A stretch of 37,796 nucleotides of DNA, taken from the IMG/VR virus record IMGVR_UViG_2897375277_000008, positions 1 to 37,796 of that record. One strand, written 5' to 3'. Made by a program: the position numbers and the translations under genes. Shown piece after piece: positions 1 to 37,796 of this stretch; the stretch's first letter is position 1; every line of letters starts with the position of its first letter. Under the pieces are notes generated by a model, which was not told the DNA's origin, did not search any database, and was given only the letters and a program-made list of their open reading frames with translations. The stretch is from a virus (Duplodnaviria > Heunggongvirae > Uroviricota > Caudoviricetes).

Positions 1-1445
1 CTTTCTGGATCCACGTCATTCAGTTTGCACGTCCCGATCAGGCTGTACAGTAGCGCTCCCCGCTCACCACCATGGTCAGAGCCGAAGAACAGGAAGTTTT
101 TACGACCCAGACTGACCGCCCGCAGGGCATTTTCAGCGATGTTGTTGTCGATTTCCACCCAGCCATCGTTCGCATAGTACGTCAGTGCCGGCCACTGGTT
201 AAGTGCGTACGCGAACGCCTTCGCCAACTCTGAGTGTCGCGACAGGGTCTTCATCTTTTCACGCAACCAGCTTTCCAGGGATTTCAACAGCGGTTTCGTT
301 TTTCGCTGACGTTCAGCAAGCCGCTGCTCTGCCGGCATTCCCCTTATATCCGCCTCTATGGCGTACAACTGACCGATCTGCTCCAGGGCTTCTTCCGTCA
401 GTGCTGACGGGATGCGGACGTGCACATCGTGGATCTTTCGGCGGGCATGAGCCCAGCAGGCAGCTTCCGTTATCCCACCATTGCGATACAGCTCGTTGAA
501 CCCGGCGTACGCATCCGCTTGCAGCACACCGCTGAAGCAAGCAAGATGAGTCTGCGGATGGATGCCTTTCCTGTCCGGGCTGTAAGCGAACCACACTGCA
601 GGTGCCAACGCTGACCCGGCATTGCGGTCATCACGAACATACGCCCACAACCGCCCGGTCTTCGTCTTCTTATTACCCGGCAGCAGTACCTGGACCGGGG
701 TATCATCGGCATGGAGTTTGCCGTCAGTCATGACATAGCCATGAAGCGCCTCTTCCAGCGGAGACAGCAGCCGGCAGCATGCATCCACCCAGCCCGACAG
801 CAGTGAACGGCTCAGCTCCACACCTTGCCGGCCGTATATTTCTGACTGGCGATACAGCGGGGTGTGCTCTGCATACTTCGAGGTCAGCACGCGGGCCAGC
901 AGCCCCGGTCCGGCGATACCCCGCTCGATGGGCCGCGAAGGTGCAGGTGCCTGCACGATGGCATCGCACTGAGTACAGGCATGTTTTTCCCGTACCGTCC
1001 GGATAACCCGGAAGGCGCTACGCATCAACTCCAGCTGTTCGGCGGTATCCTCGCCCAGATAGCTCAGTGAACCGCCGCAGTTCGGGCAGCACGGCGCCGC
1101 AGGCAACAGTCGCTTTTCGTCACGGGGTAGTGATTCAGGGAACGGCTTACGGGTGCGGGTCTGACGCAACGGACGCTGTACTGCCGGGTCATACACCCTA
1201 CCAGTCAGCGTATCGCTCTCTTTCTGAAGCCGGTTCAGATCGGCTTCCATTTGTGCGATACGGCGGGAGACTTTTTCGGAACGACTGCCGAAGTTCATCC
1301 GGCGGAGTTTATCCAGCTGCGCCTGCAGATGGTCTATTTCGCGCTCCCGGTTGCTCAGCTTTTCCTGCAGGGCGTGGATCAGCGCTTCCTGTTCGGCCAG
1401 GCGCTGTTTCAGCAGGAAGATGTCGTCAGAAGAGATGTCGTTCAT
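1..1445 (-). CDS. tnpC: IS66-family transposase TnpC, 5' part (481 codons open to window edge)
   Basis: Minus-strand ATG at 1445; my hand translation starts [30 protein letters not shown] and contains CCPNCGG and a DDE-type core. Frame stays open to position 1, which is why it is absent from the ORF track. Confidence 0.8.
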
Positions 1446-1494
1446 AAGCCCGTATTTTACCGGGCTTATTCTGTGACAACCAGGATAAAGAGAT

Positions 1495-1842
1495 TTACAG
1501 CATGGTCAGGGAGGTCAGCAGCCGCTTAGGCTGTCGCCAGTCGATACCTTCCAGCAGCATCGCCAGCTGCGCCTGCGTAAGGAACACTTTGCCATCACGG
1601 GCTGACGGCCAGGCGAAGCGCCCACGCTCCAGCCGTTTGGTCAGGAGGCACAGCCCGTCACCGGTGGACCACAGCAGTTTAACCTGACTGCCGCTGCGGC
1701 CCCGGAAAATGAAAACATGGCCGGACATGGGATCGTCTTTCAGCGCCGTCTGTACTTTCGCAGCCAGGCCGTTGAAGCCATTTCTCATATCGGTGATACC
1801 GGCAACCAGCCAAATTTTGGTCCCGGAAGGTAACGGGATCAT
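1495..1842 (-). CDS. tnpB: IS66 Orf2 (TnpB)
   Basis: 115-aa [33 protein letters not shown]..., recognised as IS66 TnpB; overlaps tnpA by 4 nt. Confidence 0.85.
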
Positions 1843-2240
1843 CGCTTCAGTTCCTGTATCAGCAGAGTCAGGAGCTTTTCGCTGACATTGCCATTGAAGC
1901 GGAGCGTCCCGTGCCGGAACGTTACCTCACAGCTGATACTGAGGGTTTCCGGGTCCTCTGCGAGCGATTCTGGCTGTTCGGCAGCTGCATCGAGAGTCAC
2001 AGGAAGTAGCTGGGGGCTCTCTGAAGAAGGTAATAGCAGCTTTCCCTTGCGCCATTGTTGTCGCCATTTGAACAACAGATTGGCGTTAATGCCATTTTCA
2101 AGAGCAAGTTTTGAGATGGATATCCCGGGTTCACAGGAGGCAGCAACGAGCTGCTGTTTAAATTCGGGAGGATAATTAGGGCAGCCTTTTCGCCTGCCGG
2201 GAGTCACATTTTTCTGCATATCTGACACTTTGGTTCCCAC
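1839..2240 (-). CDS. tnpA: IS66 Orf1 (TnpA)
   Basis: 133-aa ORF MQKNVTPGRRKGCPNYPPEFKQQLVAAS..., recognised as IS66 Orf1; about 70 bp inside the IS end. Confidence 0.85.
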   Translation of the reverse strand: MGTKVSDMQKNVTPGRRKGCPNYPPEFKQQLVAASCEPGISISKLALENGINANLLFKWRQQWRKGKLLLPSSESPQLLPVTLDAAAEQPESLAEDPETLSISCEVTFRHGTLRFNGNVSEKLLTLLIQELKR

Positions 2241-2291
2241 TACTTATTTGGTGGACACCACTTTGTCTAATTCGTCAGATTCTGACCAGAC

Positions 2292-2311
2292 GGTTCAGGC
2301 TGTACGCTTAC
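2292..2311 (-). repeat. IS66 terminal inverted repeat (element end at 2311)
   Basis: Plus strand ggttcaggctgtacgcttac, reverse complement GTAAGCGTACAGCCTGAACC. Confidence 0.7.
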
Positions 2312-2312
2312 T

Positions 2313-2483
2313 TCTGTTCAGAATGCTGTATTTCTGAAAAAACGTGATGCTCTCATCGTCCACACCAATCTACGACTGAACATTCCACTTATAGTTAAGG
2401 ATAAATGGGATGAGGATGAAATCCTGGAGCGGGGTAAAAAGTTGGGGGAAATTGCATTGAAAGTATGGCCAAAACACGATTAA
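2313..2483 (+). other. 3' end of a plus-strand ORF abutting the IS66 end (possible IS-disrupted gene)
   Basis: Frame open from the IS junction to TAA at 2481..2483, ending ...KWDEDEILERGKKLGEIALKVWPKHD; no start codon in window. Confidence 0.25.
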
Positions 2484-2507
2484 TGCAATTAATAAAATAA
2501 TTATAAC

Positions 2508-2527
2508 GGCCTTACATTAGTAAGGCC
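2508..2527 (-). terminator. Hairpin, probable intrinsic terminator for minus-strand transcription
   Basis: Perfect 8-bp stem ggccttac/gtaaggcc with 4-nt loop; on the minus strand it is followed by a U-rich tract. Confidence 0.45.
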
Positions 2528-2578
2528 GCTACTCACTATTAAATCCTTTAATTTGCATCAAGAACAGCAGTGTCAGCC

Positions 2579-2707
2579 CTAGGTCTCGGACTTTGTACCG
2601 CTTATCTTGTCTTCAAAAATCAGCTCGCATCCTGCACAGTTCAGCGCATTACGTTGTAGATCTGTGTTCTGGTCATTTATTGATACGCGTACATAGCCAA
2701 TAAGCAT
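2579..2707 (-). pseudogene. pin: Truncated Gin/Pin/Hin-type serine invertase (N-terminal ~40 codons only)
   Basis: Minus-strand translation MLIGYVRVSINDQNTDLQRNALNCAGCELIFEDKISGTKSET-stop matches the invertase N-terminus including the catalytic-serine region, then hits a stop at codon 43 and no further invertase-like sequence follows. Confidence 0.75.
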
Positions 2708-2733
2708 AGTGGCTCCCTCTGACAAAAGCAGGA

Positions 2734-3312
2734 ATGATGCCATTTGCTCGTTATTTCTGCATTTTCATAAACGTTGGTTTGGGAGAAGGCTCTGCATTAC
2801 CGGTTGGGGTGCCTGTTCCGTGGCCTTCAGCCACTCCGCCAACAGGCTGGCTGAAATGCAATGGTGCGGCTTTTTCTGCTGAAGAATACCCGGAACTGGC
2901 AAAGGCTTACCCGACCAATAAATTGCCTGATTTACGCGGTGAATTTATTCGTGGCTGGGATGATGGACGTGGAGTGGATGCGGGGCGAGCCTTGCTAAGT
3001 CTTCAGAATGACTCTTTTGAAGCTCACAGGCATGAGTCCTTTTTTTACGCGGGTATTTCACGCAATGAAACACCATTAAAAAATCTTCCAAGTTCAGACG
3101 AGATGCTGACTTTAAGTTCCACAACTAATGCCTTGTCCCCGGACAGTATTGATGCCACCAATTCGTTAATTGGTAATGATGATTACAACTGTCTGATTGA
3201 AGGAAATAAAAATAACAAACGAACGGCAACGGGGTTGAGTACCAGTATTGTCGGTGCAGCAGAGACACGCCCACGTAATATTTCATTTAATTACATTGTG
3301 AGGGCTGCATGA
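2734..3312 (+). CDS. Alternative tail-fibre C-terminal cassette (silent in this orientation; no own start)
   Basis: ORF contains PVPWPSATPPTGWLKCNGAAFSAEEYPELAKAYPTNKLPDLRGEFIRGWDDGRG, the classic phage tail-fibre C-terminal motif; real coding starts at the crossover site around 2776. Confidence 0.7.
   Translation: MMPFARYFCIFINVGLGEGSALPVGVPVPWPSATPPTGWLKCNGAAFSAEEYPELAKAYPTNKLPDLRGEFIRGWDDGRGVDAGRALLSLQNDSFEAHRHESFFYAGISRNETPLKNLPSSDEMLTLSSTTNALSPDSIDATNSLIGNDDYNCLIEGNKNNKRTATGLSTSIVGAAETRPRNISFNYIVRAA
2762..2787 (+). other. Inversion crossover site (gix/pix-like), left
   Basis: 26-bp site ttttcataaacgTTggtttgggagaa; right half-site and central TT identical to the reverse complement of the site at 4598..4623. 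Confidence 0.7.
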
Positions 3313-3914
3313 TGTATAACGCCATCTTAAATAATAAATTTATTGCCACAAAGGCAGGAGAGATTACCGTTTATAACTATGACAGTGAGACACGGGAGTA
3401 TATTTCTGCATCAACTGAATATCTTGCTGTGGGTGTCGGTATCCCTGCATATTCCTGTTTAGATGCTCCTGGCACACATAAGGTTGGTTATGCAATCTGC
3501 CGTTCGGCAGATTTAAACTCATGGGAATATGTGCCAGACCATCGCGGTGAAGTTGTCTATAACACCGAAACGGGAGAATCAAAAGAAATCACAGCTCCGG
3601 GTGATTACCCTGAAAATACAACCACTATCGTCCCGTTAACGCCATACGATAAATGGGATGGTGAGAAATGGGTGACAGATACTGAGGCACAGCATAGTGC
3701 CGCAGTAGACGCGGCAGAAGCACAGCGCCAGTCGCTGATTGATGCTGCAATGGCTTCCATCAGTCTGATTCAACTGAAATTACAGGCCGGGCGGAAGCTG
3801 ACGCAGGCAGAAACAACCCGACTTAACGCCGTGCTGGATTACATTGACGCGGTGACGGTAACAGATACCAGCACCACGCCGGATGTCATCTGGCCTGAAC
3901 TGCCGGAGGCGTAG
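3309..3914 (+). CDS. Tail fibre assembly protein (alternative cassette)
   Basis: 201-aa ORF directly after the alternative fibre cassette; C-terminus ...[12 protein letters not shown] is Tfa-like. Confidence 0.7.
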
Positions 3915-4314
3915 GCCATTCAATATCGGGTGCTGTTGAAGTATCAACACGCATCAGCAGCACACGGTATTTCTTCCATTTGGTGAGAGTTGAAGTTTCT
4001 TCATCAGTTGCGATATCAGCATCAACAGCATCCTGACGCCAGGATATTTCACTGTCAGCTTTTTCCCGTAATTGGGATTTTTTAACTTCAGCAATAGCTA
4101 TTAATTCCTTTTTGGTCGGCTGAGGAATATCTATCAGTGCTGGTTTTCCATTCAGTGTTCCAATCTGTTTTCCTGGTAGAATATCCGTAAATAACTTTTT
4201 ATGTTCTTCCTCACTGACTATTACACCATCATCAGGCCACAGACCTGATGCCTCAAATTTTTCTTTCTCCGATATGGGGAAAAAGCCATTTGCTTTAGCG
4301 CTCCATACGTACAT
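3886..4314 (-). CDS. Tail fibre assembly protein (expressed cassette)
   Basis: 142-aa ORF after the tail-fibre gene, C-terminus ...[15 protein letters not shown]; converges on and overlaps the other tfa by 29 bp. Confidence 0.7.
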
Positions 4315-4315
4315 A

Positions 4316-4900
4316 TCAATACCCCACCGCTATAATGTCCACATTAAATCCCCCGGGACCTGCCTGCCAGATGCTGGCCCCTGTTAATGATTTTGTTTGA
4401 TGAACAACCGCCACATTTGCTGGCGATTGTGTTTCAGTTGTTACAGTACCGATATCATTCCAGTTAATTGAGATGGAATAGTTCGTTGTTGTAAACGACC
4501 GGGGGAAAGTTATGTGTCTTACATTGGTGCCGACAGGAAATCCAAGATAAACACGCTGAATTATCATTCCTCCAGGTAACATAACCCAGTTAGCACCTTC
4601 TCCCAAACCAAGGTTTTCGAGAGCTGTTTTCACCGTGCCATCCGATTTGATATCGCCAAACGGATTCTTGCGGCTTAACAGCAGCGCACGAAGCGCGGTA
4701 AGCAACTGGTCGTGCCGCGCCTTCTCCAGGCTGGCACCGGAGGCCTCCACCACGCTGCAGAGTTCTTCCTGCAACATGTCAAAGTAGTCATCATCCAGAT
4801 CGGTGGCAGGCGTGCCTGTCTGGGGGTTACCACGGGTAAAACCGTTCTTACCCGGGCCGAACTTATCCTTCTGCGCGGTTTTCGTGTCTATACGATGCAT
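4316..4900 (-). CDS. Tail fibre protein (constant N-terminus joined to current variable C-terminus)
   Basis: 194-aa ORF between the YmfQ-like gene and tfa; crossover site lies inside it at the LENLGLGEG codons. Confidence 0.65.
4598..4623 (-). other. Inversion crossover site (gix/pix-like), right, inside the tail-fibre gene
   Basis: Plus strand ttctcccaaaccAAggttttcgagag; reverse complement shares TTGGTTTGGGAGAA with the left site; both sites encode the shared GLGEG peptide. Confidence 0.7.
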
Positions 4901-4903
4901 GGA

Positions 4904-5488
4904 TTACTCCGGATATTTAAAAATTACGTAGGTATGCGACGGGCAGAGTTTGTTAAGCACACATTCGACGACGGTGTCGCCCCAGACACGCAGCGCGGAA
5001 TCACAGGGATCGCCACATGTCATCCAGGTGGTGTTGGTGGCGGCTGGCATGTTGACCTGCCAGTAATACCGCCATTCCGGCGCATTCACCGCGTCAGTAC
5101 AGGCAGATGAGCAGGTGAAAGTGCTTTTATCGTATCGCGTGATGGTGGCATCCGGTCTGCCCAGGGCAGCAAGCTGTGCAAGGTAAAAATCCTCATTGAT
5201 GCCGCCCGCCAGATTAACCTTCGCATCCAGCCGTTGCTGACGCTGGCGAAGGGTCTGCGTTCCCGCCGGAATACATTCATCCGGCAGGCCGCACAGACGC
5301 TCCCAGCGGTTTATCAGTTCAGTGGTGGTGCGCGGATCCAGCTCCCGCATCAGGGCATCCGCACGCTGATGAACGCGGGTTAATGACGGTGCCGCACCGG
5401 CAATCGCCGGATCGCTGACTGACCACGCCGGACCGGGCGGCAACAGTGCCGACAACAGACGGATATAATCATCGTTTGTCACGTCCAT
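4904..5488 (-). CDS. Tail/baseplate protein, YmfQ-like (Mu gp48-like)
   Basis: 194-aa ORF between baseplate J and tail fibre; family recalled from e14/Mu. Confidence 0.6.
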
Positions 5489-6537
5489 GAAATCGTCCCC
5501 AGAACTGCCAGCTCATTTTTTGCAATGGAGATATTGTCCGCCGGGGCAAGCAACTGATGGCTGTATTCCCCGTTCGCACCGGAAATCGCTTCACTGATAC
5601 GTGACACCTTCAGTTCTCCCTGCGGATAACCATCACGCAGCAGGAACGAACGCAACTCCGCGGTGATGGCGGCTCGTATTTCCGGTGTATCCGGCGTCAC
5701 ACGGATATGAAAATCCACTTTATGCGCCACCGGCCTGAATACATACAAATCAGAGCCTGCCACCGGGGCCAGTGGCTCGATATGTTGTCTTGCCGCCGTT
5801 TCCGTTGATTCTTCCGGAATGGGATTAATCAGGTCACTGCTGGCAATCATCACACCGACAGTTCCCGTTCCCATCCAGTGACGGTATGTCCATGCGCGGG
5901 TAATGCCGGGCACTTCTTTAGCCCAGACGACATAGTCCCCGTCAGCCCCGCCCTGAGGCGTCCAGTAATACCGCTCAATGACGCGGGCGCGCCACGTTTC
6001 CAGCTCTTCAGTATCAAATCCACCTGTCAGGGTATCTGCCACGCCGGAAGACGGCAGACCATTCACCGGCGTGACCAGGATTAATGACGTACCGTCGTCA
6101 GCGTTACCGACCGCGCCTGCACTTGAGCAGGCGATCGGCACGCGCAGGACACCACCGGAGCTGGTTGCATCGGCAGTTGCCGTGTACTGAACCAGGTCAT
6201 CGCGCTGAATAACACTCCCGGCGGTCACCTTCAGGCCATCGCTGACACCTTCCCAGCGCATATACCCGCTGGCAGTCGTGGCCCCCTTGCGCGGACACCG
6301 TTTCATCGCAGCATGTCGCGCCAGCCAGGACTCATCGCACAGGTCAGGCAGCATGTTCATTGCCAGATAATCGATGTACCCGTAAACCGTATGCAGCGCC
6401 GCCGCATACACCTTTGCCCGCACGTCTTCATCCATGCGCCGGAGCGTGTCGCTGACGTCCAGCCTGGCGAATAAATCGTTACGGAGCATACTGATATTTT
6501 CTGCCAGCGTCGGGCGCTGAAATTCACTGTCCGCCAT
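5479..6537 (-). CDS. Baseplate J-like protein
   Basis: 352-aa ORF in baseplate cluster; position and size fit Mu gp47 / P2 gpJ. Confidence 0.7.
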
Positions 6538-6952
6538 GCATTATCGCACTCCACAGATCATCAAAAGAAATCATTACCGGTCCGTCACGACGCCAGAGAG
6601 TGATACTGTTACCCAGTTCATTAATCCCGGTGCGGCGGATATCCAGATCAATACGGGACACCACACCGTCATCAATCATCCATTGCAGGCATTCGCGGAT
6701 ATACCCCCTTACCGTCTGCACCAGCTGATTGGTCAGTTTGCCGCGCTGAAGCAGCCACAGCCGGGAGCCGTAACGGTCATTCTGTACCGCAGGCCAGGTA
6801 TCCCCCCACCATCCCATCGGGACGTCGGCATTGTCATCAGGCTCCGCCCGCCGCCAGGTAAACAGGGAAATCACCACGGCGCGGGTCAGCGGATCCAGCG
6901 GTGCGCTGGCGCAGGTGCGTTTACCGTTCACCGTCAGCCACAGTTCCATCAT
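6524..6952 (-). CDS. Baseplate protein, Mu gp46-like
   Basis: 142-aa ORF overlapping neighbours in the baseplate operon. Confidence 0.55.
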   Translation of the reverse strand: MMELWLTVNGKRTCASAPLDPLTRAVVISLFTWRRAEPDDNADVPMGWWGDTWPAVQNDRYGSRLWLLQRGKLTNQLVQTVRGYIRECLQWMIDDGVVSRIDLDIRRTGINELGNSITLWRRDGPVMISFDDLWSAIMHGGQ

Positions 6953-7497
6953 GCCTCCATCGCTTTATCCGGTTTGTCGGTGTTACTGCCCTGACCGTTC
7001 TCTCTGTGACGATGGCCGTTATAGGCAAGCCGCATCGCTGACATGGTGGTGCCGCCGGAGTCGCACAGGTCTTTCACCTGTCCGGTCACTTCCAGGTCCA
7101 TTTCAAAACGTGCTTTAGGTGAATTGCGAAACGTGATCGTTTTACCTGCACCGTCCACCACGATCCCCTCCCGGGTCAGCGTCACGGACTGCCCCTGATC
7201 GTCATAGACAGCCACCTCACCCGTCTGCAGCCCTTTCAGGCGGTAGCGCCGGTCCGACACCGTAACAACCACCGCATGAGAACGGTCGCCATCCGGAAAC
7301 AACACCACCGCTTCCGCACCGCTGTTTGCCCTTGAGGTAAAACCGTAGGGTTCAAGATGTTCAACCCCTGCTTTGGGTTCACCGGCAATCAGGGACACAT
7401 CCACGGTCTGACATTTCGTGGCGGCACTGATGCTTTTCACCACGGCCCGCCCAATCAGGCCGAGGAGTTGTCGCTGCATGGCTTCAATCGTCCTCAT
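6949..7497 (-). CDS. Baseplate assembly protein V / spike
   Basis: 182-aa ORF MRTIEAMQRQLLGLIGRAVV...; gpV-like N-terminus. Confidence 0.65.
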   Translation of the reverse strand: MRTIEAMQRQLLGLIGRAVVKSISAATKCQTVDVSLIAGEPKAGVEHLEPYGFTSRANSGAEAVVLFPDGDRSHAVVVTVSDRRYRLKGLQTGEVAVYDDQGQSVTLTREGIVVDGAGKTITFRNSPKARFEMDLEVTGQVKDLCDSGGTTMSAMRLAYNGHRHRENGQGSNTDKPDKAMEA

Positions 7498-8576
7498 CAG
7501 AACGGATCCTCCTGTACTCTGGCTTTTTTCTTTTTCCGCGAGCCGGGGGCTTCGGGTTCAGGCAGATAAGCATCAGGCGGGCCGACACGGATTTCCGTCA
7601 GGGTGCCGTTCTGGTCCTGAGTAAACGTGACTTCCGAAACAAGCAGTTCGGTATTGTCGAAACCACAGACCGGATCGAAGACAATCACCCGCTGGTTGGG
7701 CTGCCACAGCGTACCGTTACCCTGTCGCCAGCCCTGCACCACATAGGTGGTTTCATCCGTCCGCGCCGCCCGTTGCCGGGCTTCAAAGTCAGCACGGGCA
7801 ATACAGCCTGCCCCCGTGGCCTGCCCTGTCTGCCTGATATACATCGGACGGTAACGGGCAATAAATGCGTCCTCTGTGCGGGCCCGCAGCGCGGTGGTGG
7901 TGGCCTCACCGAAATCATCGTCGTTTCCGGCACGCTGCCCCGCCACCTGGTAAACTGAAAACCGCTCCCGGATACTCTTCTCCGTATCACAGGAAAGGAT
8001 GTTTTCCCCAAGTACCAGCGCGGTATGTGCCCGCGTTGAGCCAATACCGCCAATCACCAGCCTGCCGTGCGGGTCGTCATAAGCCAGCGCCTGCTGCTGA
8101 CCGAGTATTTTGTTGATTACCTCAATCACCGTTTCACCGTGATCAGGCTGGACATCAGGAATAACACCCGACGGCGCACCGCTGTTCACCACCTCAATGC
8201 CGAAAGGCGCAGCAAGCGCCTGCGCAATCTGTACCAGCGATCGTCCGTTAAACTGTGTCGGTTCGGCTGCACAGTCAATCAGGTCAGCGGTCAGACTACG
8301 TCCGGCAATACCGGTGCTGACCGAACGGGCATCGTAACGAACGGGCGTCGCCTCCACCCAGCCAGTGATCACCAGCTCATCACCAATCAGCACTTCCACT
8401 TTTGAACCGTTTTTAATGCGCGGCTGAAGCGTGGTGATACCCTCATCTCCCGGCCACTGGCGGGTGATCTCCACACTGAAATCCCGCGCCAGTCGTTCAA
8501 CACCGGCACCGATGCGCACCGATGTCCAGCCATTCCACTCCCGGCCATTTACCCGTAGCGTGACGTTATCGTTCAT
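7497..8576 (-). CDS. Baseplate hub / late tail protein (Mu gp44, P2 gpD-like)
   Basis: 359-aa ORF between the gp43-like and gpV-like genes; start overlaps upstream stop. Confidence 0.55.
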   Translation of the reverse strand: MNDNVTLRVNGREWNGWTSVRIGAGVERLARDFSVEITRQWPGDEGITTLQPRIKNGSKVEVLIGDELVITGWVEATPVRYDARSVSTGIAGRSLTADLIDCAAEPTQFNGRSLVQIAQALAAPFGIEVVNSGAPSGVIPDVQPDHGETVIEVINKILGQQQALAYDDPHGRLVIGGIGSTRAHTALVLGENILSCDTEKSIRERFSVYQVAGQRAGNDDDFGEATTTALRARTEDAFIARYRPMYIRQTGQATGAGCIARADFEARQRAARTDETTYVVQGWRQGNGTLWQPNQRVIVFDPVCGFDNTELLVSEVTFTQDQNGTLTEIRVGPPDAYLPEPEAPGSRKKKKARVQEDPF

Positions 8577-35924: not shown

Positions 35925-37796
35925 TTAAACCACGATTCCTAAATGGCATGGTTGCTCACCTTCAAGAGAGGCTCTCATTAAGGTCAGGAATTGGGATAAA
36001 TTATTTCTAAAATCAGAACCACTATCTTCCGCCATTCCTGGAGCTAACGAACTTACTAATAAAGCAGGTGTGATAGGTCTTGTTCCGTAAATACTATATT
36101 TCTCATGATGGAAATGACGAGTCTCGCAAGATTCACTTGGATTTACAATCATCAGCCCAGAAGACAAACTTTTTCCAGTATTTTTTTCATGTATACCATG
36201 AAGGTATTTCATAGTGAGTTCGGGGAGGTAATGTGTAAACGCTTTTTTACTGGTAGTATACTTTGCATCTAGGATTAATTGCCTTTGTTCACCCGTAGGC
36301 GTTGAAATGCAAACTATCATGTCTGGTGATCGATTAGCATTAGGACCTTGCTGCCCTCTAGGCTTCAATTTACCTTTCACGGTGTCTAGAGTCCACCCTT
36401 CGGAGTTAATTAGGGAAGCCCCAAAAGAGCTTGCATGATCATGAGTCCAAATTTTCATCTCATAGATAAGCTGTACAGTAAAACCTCCCCAGTCATACTC
36501 AAAATTATTCCGTTCTATTACAGGGCCATTCACTAGCTCAAACTTCATGCCCAATAACCGTACGTTGTCAAAGTGATACTTAATTAAAAATAATAGGTAG
36601 TATTCAAAAAGTTTTGGGATACTTTGTATCGAAAATAGCTCTTCCTGTACGCTCCAATCAGGTGCGCCGAATCTATGCCAAGCAATTATTTTATGAAAAA
36701 CCTTCTGATAATGAAGGTTGTATCTAGCTTTTCTTGTGAATTGCGGAGTGCCAATGATAATATTAGTTACAGGAACCCGCTCATCAAAAGTTCGTTTCAA
36801 ACGCTGTAGATTAATAATCAATTCTTTACATCGTGAAACTTTATTTTTATTTACAACCTTTGCAAACTTACTTAGCTGTGCAAAAAATGAAATATACCCG
36901 GATATGCTCGACTGTTCACGAATTCTGGAAGAAGGATACTCTTCAAGCCGACTCAAGATCTCCGATGCAGCACGCATAAGGGATACTATAAAGCCATGGA
37001 CAACTTGATTTTCATAAATATTCAAATCCTCTTTTAGATGATTTTCTAATATTCGTTCCGATGAATAATATGTGCCATCTAGTTCCAATATTGCGCGGGT
37101 CTGATCATTAACTGGATAAAGGTTGTCAGAGTTTTCTGAAATCCAAGCTAAAGTGGTGTCATCGATAACAGAGTTTTCAGATACTACGACAACTTTAGTC
37201 ACTGGTGTAAGTTTTGCGATTGGCCTGGAATAGATATTTGGAATCTCGGTCATTAACAATAAAACATTTCGTTCGAGTTGTTCAATCAAAAAGCTAACCG
37301 ATCTTTCTCCTTCTTTGAATCCTGCATTTATACGAGTTACTCTAAAAAATGCTGCTAGAGCATCATTATCATGACACGCTAAGAAATCGAGCATTTTTTC
37401 TGCCCGTTCAGCATTCAATTTTTTGGCAAATACTTCAACCGGAGAATATTGTTCAATAATAACTCTTTCGCCAACTCCATCGATTTTCGTTACTATCGAT
37501 AGCTCTGCCATACCATAATAGTTATGAAAAAAGCATTCGTATGTTGATCGATATATAGATTTTGGTTTCCATTCGTAAATCCATAGGCCATCGTATTCTT
37601 TGCTAGAAGTTATTCCTATTTCATTTTCATGAAGACATAAAAAAACATCATCCAACGGAACAGATGCTTCCAGCCTAAACTCTAGAGCTTCGTCTTCCAG
37701 AAAATAAATCTGATTAGAGGACTGAAGACCAAAGGGAGTCAACCCTATCTCTAGACCACTTCTCCTGCCGTTTATTATCTTCGCAGTAAACCTCAT
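35925..37796 (-). CDS. McrC-like PD-(D/E)xK nuclease family protein (start codon at window edge)
   Basis: 623-aa AT-rich ORF; C-terminal ...SPDMIVCISTPTGEQRQLILDAKYT... parallels the McrC catalytic region (…DITIRSSEKILIVDAKYY…) as I recall it. Confidence 0.6.
   Translation of the reverse strand: MRFTAKIINGRRSGLEIGLTPFGLQSSNQIYFLEDEALEFRLEASVPLDDVFLCLHENEIGITSSKEYDGLWIYEWKPKSIYRSTYECFFHNYYGMAELSIVTKIDGVGERVIIEQYSPVEVFAKKLNAERAEKMLDFLACHDNDALAAFFRVTRINAGFKEGERSVSFLIEQLERNVLLLMTEIPNIYSRPIAKLTPVTKVVVVSENSVIDDTTLAWISENSDNLYPVNDQTRAILELDGTYYSSERILENHLKEDLNIYENQVVHGFIVSLMRAASEILSRLEEYPSSRIREQSSISGYISFFAQLSKFAKVVNKNKVSRCKELIINLQRLKRTFDERVPVTNIIIGTPQFTRKARYNLHYQKVFHKIIAWHRFGAPDWSVQEELFSIQSIPKLFEYYLLFLIKYHFDNVRLLGMKFELVNGPVIERNNFEYDWGGFTVQLIYEMKIWTHDHASSFGASLINSEGWTLDTVKGKLKPRGQQGPNANRSPDMIVCISTPTGEQRQLILDAKYTTSKKAFTHYLPELTMKYLHGIHEKNTGKSLSSGLMIVNPSESCETRHFHHEKYSIYGTRPITPALLVSSLAPGMAEDSGSDFRNNLSQFLTLMRASLEGEQPCHLGIVV

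Follow-up and report, generated by a model that had tools for sequence, protein, structure and literature searches.

Introduction

The Type IV restriction enzymes closest to the gene described here are Eco94GmrSD, the UTI89 GmrSD (the "UT enzyme", UTI89_C2960) and the CT596 GmrS-GmrD enzyme, all of which have been shown experimentally to cleave DNA containing hydroxymethylcytosine (hmC) or glucosyl-hmC and to restrict T-even phages (PMC4437046). Eco94GmrSD is encoded immediately beyond prophage tail-fibre genes, and six of its positions (D507, H508, C517, N522, N528 and N535) have been mutated (PMC4437046); in addition, a D-H-N-N motif of the His-Me-finger type has been predicted by modelling (PMC4619093). 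A comparable arrangement is found in the K-12 prophage e14, which is integrated at icd and has a pin invertase gene beside a Type IV restriction gene, mcrA, at its end. Here, we analyse a 37,796-nucleotide stretch of caudoviral DNA (IMG/VR record IMGVR_UViG_2897375277_000008, positions 1 to 37,796; hereafter, the window), which begins within an insertion sequence (IS), ISEc8, that interrupts the last tenth of a gmrSD gene at the end of an e14-like prophage. Both the IS and the prophage-borne Type IV restriction gene that it cleanly entered were already known, and an event of this kind is ordinary and not novel. We consider it very probable, taking the account as a whole, that ISEc8 inserted simply into gmrSD, that the truncation of the neighbouring pin gene is older and unrelated, and that restriction was lost or badly impaired.

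The source genome is Escherichia albertii CP024282.1 (the region studied here is locus L012, with window position 1 at L012 9858; no mismatches over the 8,000 bases compared, window 1–8000). Comparison loci came from E. coli H22 (L001), IMT5155 (L002), VTB96815v (L013) and K-12 (L010), from an IMG/VR contig with identical ISEc8 junctions (L009) and from further relatives (L003, L006 and L008), and window positions 2200–2800 were searched against 5,426 complete E. coli genomes.

ISEc8 insertion in gmrSD

The following features, in window coordinates, define the insertion.

1–2311, minus strand: ISEc8 (IS66 family), 2,311 of 2,442 bp; the other 131 bp and the second inverted repeat lie directly left of the window
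3–1445, minus strand: tnpC (DDE transposase), codons 1–481 of 512, with the 3' end cut by the window start
1495–1842, minus strand: tnpB (IS66 accessory protein), 115 amino acids; Pfam TnpB_IS66, E = 1e-38; NCBIfam IS66_TnpB
1839–2240, minus strand: tnpA (IS66 accessory protein); Pfam HTH_Tnp_1; NCBIfam IS66-like TnpA
2299–2311, minus strand: core of the terminal inverted repeat, GTAAGCGTACAGC, at the tnpA-proximal IS end
2312–2319, plus strand: right-hand copy of the target-site duplication, TTCTGTTC, gmrSD nucleotides 1719–1726
2313–2483, plus strand: gmrSD 3' fragment, codons S574–D629 and stop, no start codon

In a three-way alignment that included the IS-free E. coli H22, the IS/host boundary falls exactly between positions 2311 and 2312, and in the source genome the IS occupies L012 9727–12168. 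There it is flanked at both ends by TTCTGTTC (L012 9719–9726 and 12169–12176), which is present as a single copy at the insertion position in H22; the same two junctions occur in L009, again with TTCTGTTC on both sides (far copy at L009 1774–1781). Removal of the IS and one repeat from L012 yields a 1,890-nucleotide open reading frame (ORF) with one synonymous difference from the H22 gene, so that the restored protein is identical to the IS-free allele. No host bases were lost at the IS, and the duplication is intact.

These alignments bear closely on an earlier note on this DNA, which was made from the letters of the window. It had placed an IS end (GTAAGCG...) at 2311, where the comparison with H22 also puts it, and had described 2313–2483 as an open frame without a start ending ...LKVWPKHD, which translation confirms. 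Its proposal that this frame is the 3' end of a gene split by the IS agrees with the in-frame 5' part present in the source genome. The note had further suggested seeking the far IS end and an 8-bp duplication upstream of the window, where TTCTGTTC was indeed found, and comparing IS-free relatives, among which H22 has the gene uninterrupted across the 2311/2312 boundary. Flanking sequence unrelated in frame, which the note gave as grounds for abandoning its reading, is not what lies beyond the IS, as removal of the element restores the full ORF.

The most economical sequence of events is that one intact 2,442-bp ISEc8 transposed once into gmrSD at the attR end of an e14-like prophage at icd. 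Entry at gene nucleotides 1719–1726 duplicated the 8 bp TTCTGTTC and deleted nothing, leaving gmrSD in two parts, of which the 5' part encodes 575 native and 43 IS-derived residues and the 3' part has no start codon.

The element itself shows the gene order tnpA-tnpB-tnpC with a DDE_Tnp_IS66 transposase that characterizes the IS66 family, and the family assignment made in the earlier note is upheld by Pfam and NCBIfam matches for all three genes. The tnpC product matched Pfam DDE_Tnp_IS66 (E = 4e-107), LZ_Tnp_IS66 and zf-IS66 as well as NCBIfam transpos_IS66 (451 bits), and its ORF is complete at 512 amino acids in both L009 and L012; tnpA encodes 133 amino acids from a GTG, or 126 from the ATG at 2219 that is called in the source record (L012 11696–12076). 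Because all three genes are intact, this copy appears to be competent for transposition. At the two IS ends, the outermost 13 bases are identical and the match is imperfect further in; both repeats start with GTAAGCG, and the 13-mer GTAAGCGTACAGC occurs once in the window versus 0.03 occurrences expected by chance. Window positions 1–2311 are identical to L012 9858–12168 and to L009 1913–4223. Several E. coli plasmids carry copies that match the full 2,442-bp element at 100% identity, and RefSeq gives the transposase of these copies the product name "IS66-like element ISEc8 family transposase"; copies at ≥99% identity appear in thousands of records. In length, gene content (tnpA/tnpB/tnpC), GTAAGCG ends and 8-bp target duplication it agrees with ISEc8 with no detectable difference, and is a further copy at a new site, in E. 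albertii.

Many complete E. coli records aligned to the searched segment only from position 2312 on (the best, H22, at 99.8% identity), and the IS/host junction was found in none of the 5,426 complete E. coli genomes, consistent with an E. albertii origin. The exact junction likewise had no match in GTDB species-representative genomes, and a scan of IMG/VR for it returned one contig, L009, which carries the whole 2,442-bp IS and the 5' part of gmrSD. Exact matches to the neighbouring 192-amino-acid tail-fibre protein came only from IS-free relatives.

Identity of the interrupted gene

The translation of 2313–2483 (SVQNAV...LKVWPKHD, then stop) has no internal stop and no usable start, and matches positions 93–137 of the 138-position Pfam GmrSD_C profile (E = 4.5e-5; 23.8 bits, cut-off 23). 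Window positions 2312–2789 differ from H22 DNA at one base, and because this only difference lies downstream of the gene, the fragment is identical to the 3' end of H22 gmrSD (L001 4283–6172; 1,890 nucleotides, 629 amino acids; annotated as a DUF262 domain protein). The uninterrupted 629-residue protein carries Pfam GmrSD_N (E = 1e-33) and GmrSD_C (E = 9e-21) in one chain and matches the PADLOC mREase_IV model (Type IV methyl-directed restriction) over its full length (1,497 bits); no NCBIfam model matches it. It is of the same length as Eco94GmrSD, with identical residues at D507, H508, C517, N522, N528 and N535 (PMC4437046), and the predicted D-H-N-N motif maps, with an offset of 394, to D507, H508, N563 and N572 (PMC4619093). 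The codons for D507, H508, N522, N563 and N572 are upstream of the insertion, in the 5' part that the window does not include.

On this sequence evidence, the IS disrupts the gene of a GmrSD Type IV restriction enzyme, an orthologue of Eco94GmrSD and UTI89 GmrSD. The restored 629-residue ORF resembles Eco94GmrSD, UTI89 GmrSD and CT596 GmrS-GmrD in combining DUF262 with DUF1524. Its agreement with Eco94GmrSD, compared at the six mutated positions and in length, extends to the location of the gene just past prophage tail-fibre genes, and its DNA is 93.6% identical to the UTI89 gene. Unlike its counterparts in Eco94GmrSD, UTI89 and CT596, the gene here is interrupted after codon 575, with only codons 574–629 inside the window. 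Chromosomal gmrSD was present in 306 of the 5,426 complete E. coli genomes, 299 of which carry at least 80% of the gene without interruption. The sequenced-phage collection contained no copy of this gmrSD, and only the pin portion was matched there.

A second IS66-family insertion in gmrSD

Three avian E. coli strains (IMT5155, DE17 and VTB96815v) carry a different IS66-family element in gmrSD, 25 bp upstream of the position in the window and in the same orientation. In IMT5155 (L002 3671–6112) this element is also 2,442 bp long, but it is 94.9% identical to ISEc8 and is bordered by its own 8-bp duplication, CTTTGCTT; it too lies in the HNH-motif region, and there the insertion removes N572. 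The gmrSD allele is different, and its island is near ssrA, not icd. The two insertions thus share the gene, the orientation, the element length and an 8-bp duplication, and differ in position, duplicated sequence, retention of N572, IS sequence and chromosomal context. From these comparisons, the IMT5155-type insertion is an independent event. Derivation of the window allele from the IMT5155 type by an adjacent 25-bp deletion was considered and rejected, because each allele has its own intact duplication, because L012 and L009 retain the 25 bp on the left side of the IS, and because the two IS differ at 125 positions.

Two such insertions raise the question of whether the position is non-random, with the His-Me-finger region of gmrSD acting as an IS66-family hot spot or with knock-outs being selected. 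The second event is independent, 25 bp away, in the same orientation and in a different allele and chromosomal context, and closeness and orientation of this kind would have a chance of about 1% under uniform targeting of the 1,890-bp gene (a figure obtained by post hoc arithmetic). Against this, the test is post hoc and concerns just two events, TTCTGTTC and CTTTGCTT agree at only 4 of 8 bases, at least 299 of the 306 complete E. coli genomes in which gmrSD occurs carry at least 80% of it without interruption, and an IS3-family insertion elsewhere in gmrSD is also known. We regard a non-random position as unlikely; with two events, the pair cannot be told from coincidence.

The VTB96815v copy has a more complicated history. 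Some 2.5 Mb separate the 5' and 3' halves of its gmrSD, which are recorded on opposite strands, the IS lies directly against a truncated, unrelated gene, and the 5' half also holds the IS3-family insertion, a configuration that indicates a later IS-mediated rearrangement. No rearrangement of this kind is present in the genome of the window.

Consequences for the enzyme

The 5' product keeps residues 1–575 and then reads into the IS (RKRTARAV...), stopping after 618 residues, with its stop codon ending one base before the window start. This predicted product (575 native plus 43 IS residues) exactly matches WP_232529584.1 [E. albertii], which RefSeq lists as an ordinary "DUF262 domain-containing protein" and whose last 43 residues come from the end of ISEc8; its gene is at L012 8001–9857, directly left of the window. 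The native sequence breaks off three residues past Asn572, the asparagine predicted to bind metal in the D-H-N-N His-Me-finger motif, and the final third of the conserved GmrSD_C domain (positions 93–137 of 138 in the profile) is lost. Because of the proximity of the break to Asn572 and the removal of this part of GmrSD_C, restriction of phage DNA containing glucosyl-hmC or hmC was likely lost or badly impaired.

Two points weigh against the account as a whole. First, the name ISEc8 is based on the RefSeq product names of identical copies, not on an ISfinder reference. Second, the hybrid retains D507, H508, N563 and N572 together with the experimentally essential N522, so that residual or altered activity may remain. 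Taken further, the second point would make the 618-residue hybrid a working or altered-specificity Type IV nuclease, with the DUF262 nucleoside triphosphatase domain and all five of these residues kept, the ORF open and the RefSeq annotation that of a normal protein. Such a nuclease seems improbable, given that the sequence right after the predicted metal ligand N572 is replaced by unrelated residues and that GmrSD_C positions 93–137 are gone. In addition, a PDB sequence search with GmrSD returned only one distant DUF262 homologue, 9jfl, and in this solved structure the aligned segment reaches the chain end, which suggests that this segment is part of the folded domain.

The L009 copy of gmrSD shows a further peculiarity: at L009 486–806 (gmrSD nucleotides 428–746), eight one-base insertions or deletions fall within ~320 bp, mostly as length changes in short runs, and the adjoining 2,442-bp IS in L009 has none. 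We rejected as unsupported the idea that they represent pseudogene decay after the insertion, because they are mostly run-length changes, are clustered in ~320 bp and are in no case found in L012; they are probably local assembly errors.

The truncated pin gene and the replacement of mcrA

Between the gmrSD stop and the tail-fibre genes, the window holds two further features.

2503–2532, no strand assigned: GC-rich, terminator-like hairpin separating the gmrSD stop from the pin remnant, with a stem of 13 bp and, after it on the minus strand, a T-rich tail
2579–2707, minus strand: pin remnant, retaining codons 1–41 of a PinE-type serine invertase followed by Thr and a stop; the complete invertase has 184 amino acids

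The remnant has a Pfam Resolvase N-terminal match, aligns to K-12 PinE and retains Ser9. It comprises residues 1–41 only of an invertase that would need a full catalytic domain and a C-terminal helix-turn-helix (~184–190 amino acids), and is a pseudogene; an exact look-up of the 54-amino-acid ORF that contains it returned no record. From the tail-fibre genes through the pin codons, the DNA is homologous to K-12 e14 up to about window 2573–2586; on the far side of gmrSD, homology is not regained until the prophage boundary and the icd' remnant. The same pin remnant adjoins an intact 629-residue gmrSD in IS-free genomes, including H22, UTI89 and APEC O1, and the hairpin at 2503–2532 is conserved in IS-free relatives.

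By these comparisons, all gmrSD-bearing relatives examined descend from an ancestor in which a ~2.8-kb gmrSD cassette took the place of everything from about codon 41–45 of pinE through mcrA to attR; the exchange removed the 3' three-quarters of pinE and destroyed that gene. The cassette stands in place of 1.6 kb (window 2312–2586 side versus K-12 L010 5821–7406), and gmrSD is transcribed towards pin, not away from it, opposite to the orientation of mcrA. The mcrA gene, which the earlier note associated with this end in e14, is not carried here, and gmrSD lies in its place in the opposite orientation.

Because the same remnant, hairpin and junction occur in IS-free genomes, the IS had no part in the truncation of pin, which by these alignments is older than the IS and unrelated to it. 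The note had taken the proximity of IS and invertase as a sign of IS-linked rearrangement or deletion, a suggestion that does not survive the finding of an identical remnant in IS-free relatives and an intact duplication. For this genome, a single IS-mediated rearrangement or deletion that removed both the rest of pin and mcrA is, on the sequence comparisons, refuted and scarcely credible: the IS junction at 2311 is close to the pin breakpoint at ~2573–2586, and IS66-family copies in gmrSD can drive rearrangements, as in VTB96815v, but the identical pin remnant and hairpin stand beside intact gmrSD in IS-free genomes, the 8-bp duplication is intact with no host bases missing, an undisturbed gmrSD 3' end and the terminator-like hairpin separate the IS from the pin breakpoint, and precise excision of the IS would not restore the deleted pin.

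Prophage context and origin

The prophage is e14-like and integrated at icd, a 3' fragment of which is duplicated at attR: an icd' remnant lies upstream of gmrSD in L012, L008 and H22, and intE, xisE and icd are at the other end of the 99.9%-identical H22 prophage. With K-12 e14 it shares integration at icd with icd' at attR, intE/xisE, ymfQ, an invertible stf/tfa segment and a pin gene beside a Type IV restriction gene at the prophage end. It differs from e14 in that pinE is cut to 41 codons, in that mcrA is replaced by the 2.8-kb gmrSD cassette, and in having a full head and Mu-like tail gene set, which e14 does not.

Over 24.8 kb, the prophage is 99.9% identical to the one in E. coli H22 (NZ_CP120563.1, 2912–2947 kb), and the chromosomal flank of the E. 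albertii source is at most 96.1% identical to any complete E. coli genome. These identities, together with the single difference in the 1,890 nucleotides of gmrSD, suggest a recent prophage transfer between E. albertii and E. coli, with the IS arriving later.

The tail-fibre region next to the pin remnant is bounded by crossover sites, which are context and not part of the IS event.

2769–2789, no strand assigned: crossover site bounding the invertible tail-fibre segment; inverted-repeat partner at 4596–4616 (21 nucleotides, 95% complementary)

The invertible segment (2769–4616) has one orientation in the window, L003, L006 and L008 and the opposite one in H22 and L009. Since L009 carries the same ISEc8 insertion and shows no difference from the window across their common flank (2312–2789), yet has the segment in the opposite orientation, the segment flipped after the arrival of the IS. 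That it flipped despite a resident pin cut to 41 codons implies an invertase acting in trans or recombination between the repeats.

Two other observations concern the ends of the prophage. At the right end, a gene for a 623-residue protein with a DUF2357 domain (window 35925–37796, minus strand) runs off the window; in H22 it adjoins a gene for a hypothetical 848-residue protein, the pair lying between intE and icd, the place occupied by lit, ymfD and ymfE in K-12 e14. This gene may be another defence cargo; it matched no PADLOC model. At the other end, E. coli H22 (L001 1–3435) and one other genome (L006 1–6771) have a second lambdoid prophage directly past the icd' remnant, giving tandem prophages at icd; the genes of the second include exo, a recT-like gene, xis and int, the last of which is a pseudogene in H22.

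Discussion

At this locus, a prophage end serves as a place where one Type IV restriction gene is exchanged for another (mcrA in K-12, gmrSD here), and IS elements erode such cargo; neither the swap nor the erosion changes current understanding. It is unlikely that the two IS66-family insertions 25 bp apart in the HNH/His-Me-finger motif reflect more than chance, whether through IS-attracting DNA or through repeated selection for switching the gene off. If they did, the selection could be, for example, for tolerance of incoming modified DNA, and IS insertion and excision would amount to a crude on/off switch of a prophage defence gene.

The practical value of the locus is chiefly for annotation. 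Because RefSeq lists the IS-truncated hybrid as an ordinary DUF262 protein, defence-system inventories would score this E. albertii strain as GmrSD-positive despite its split gene.

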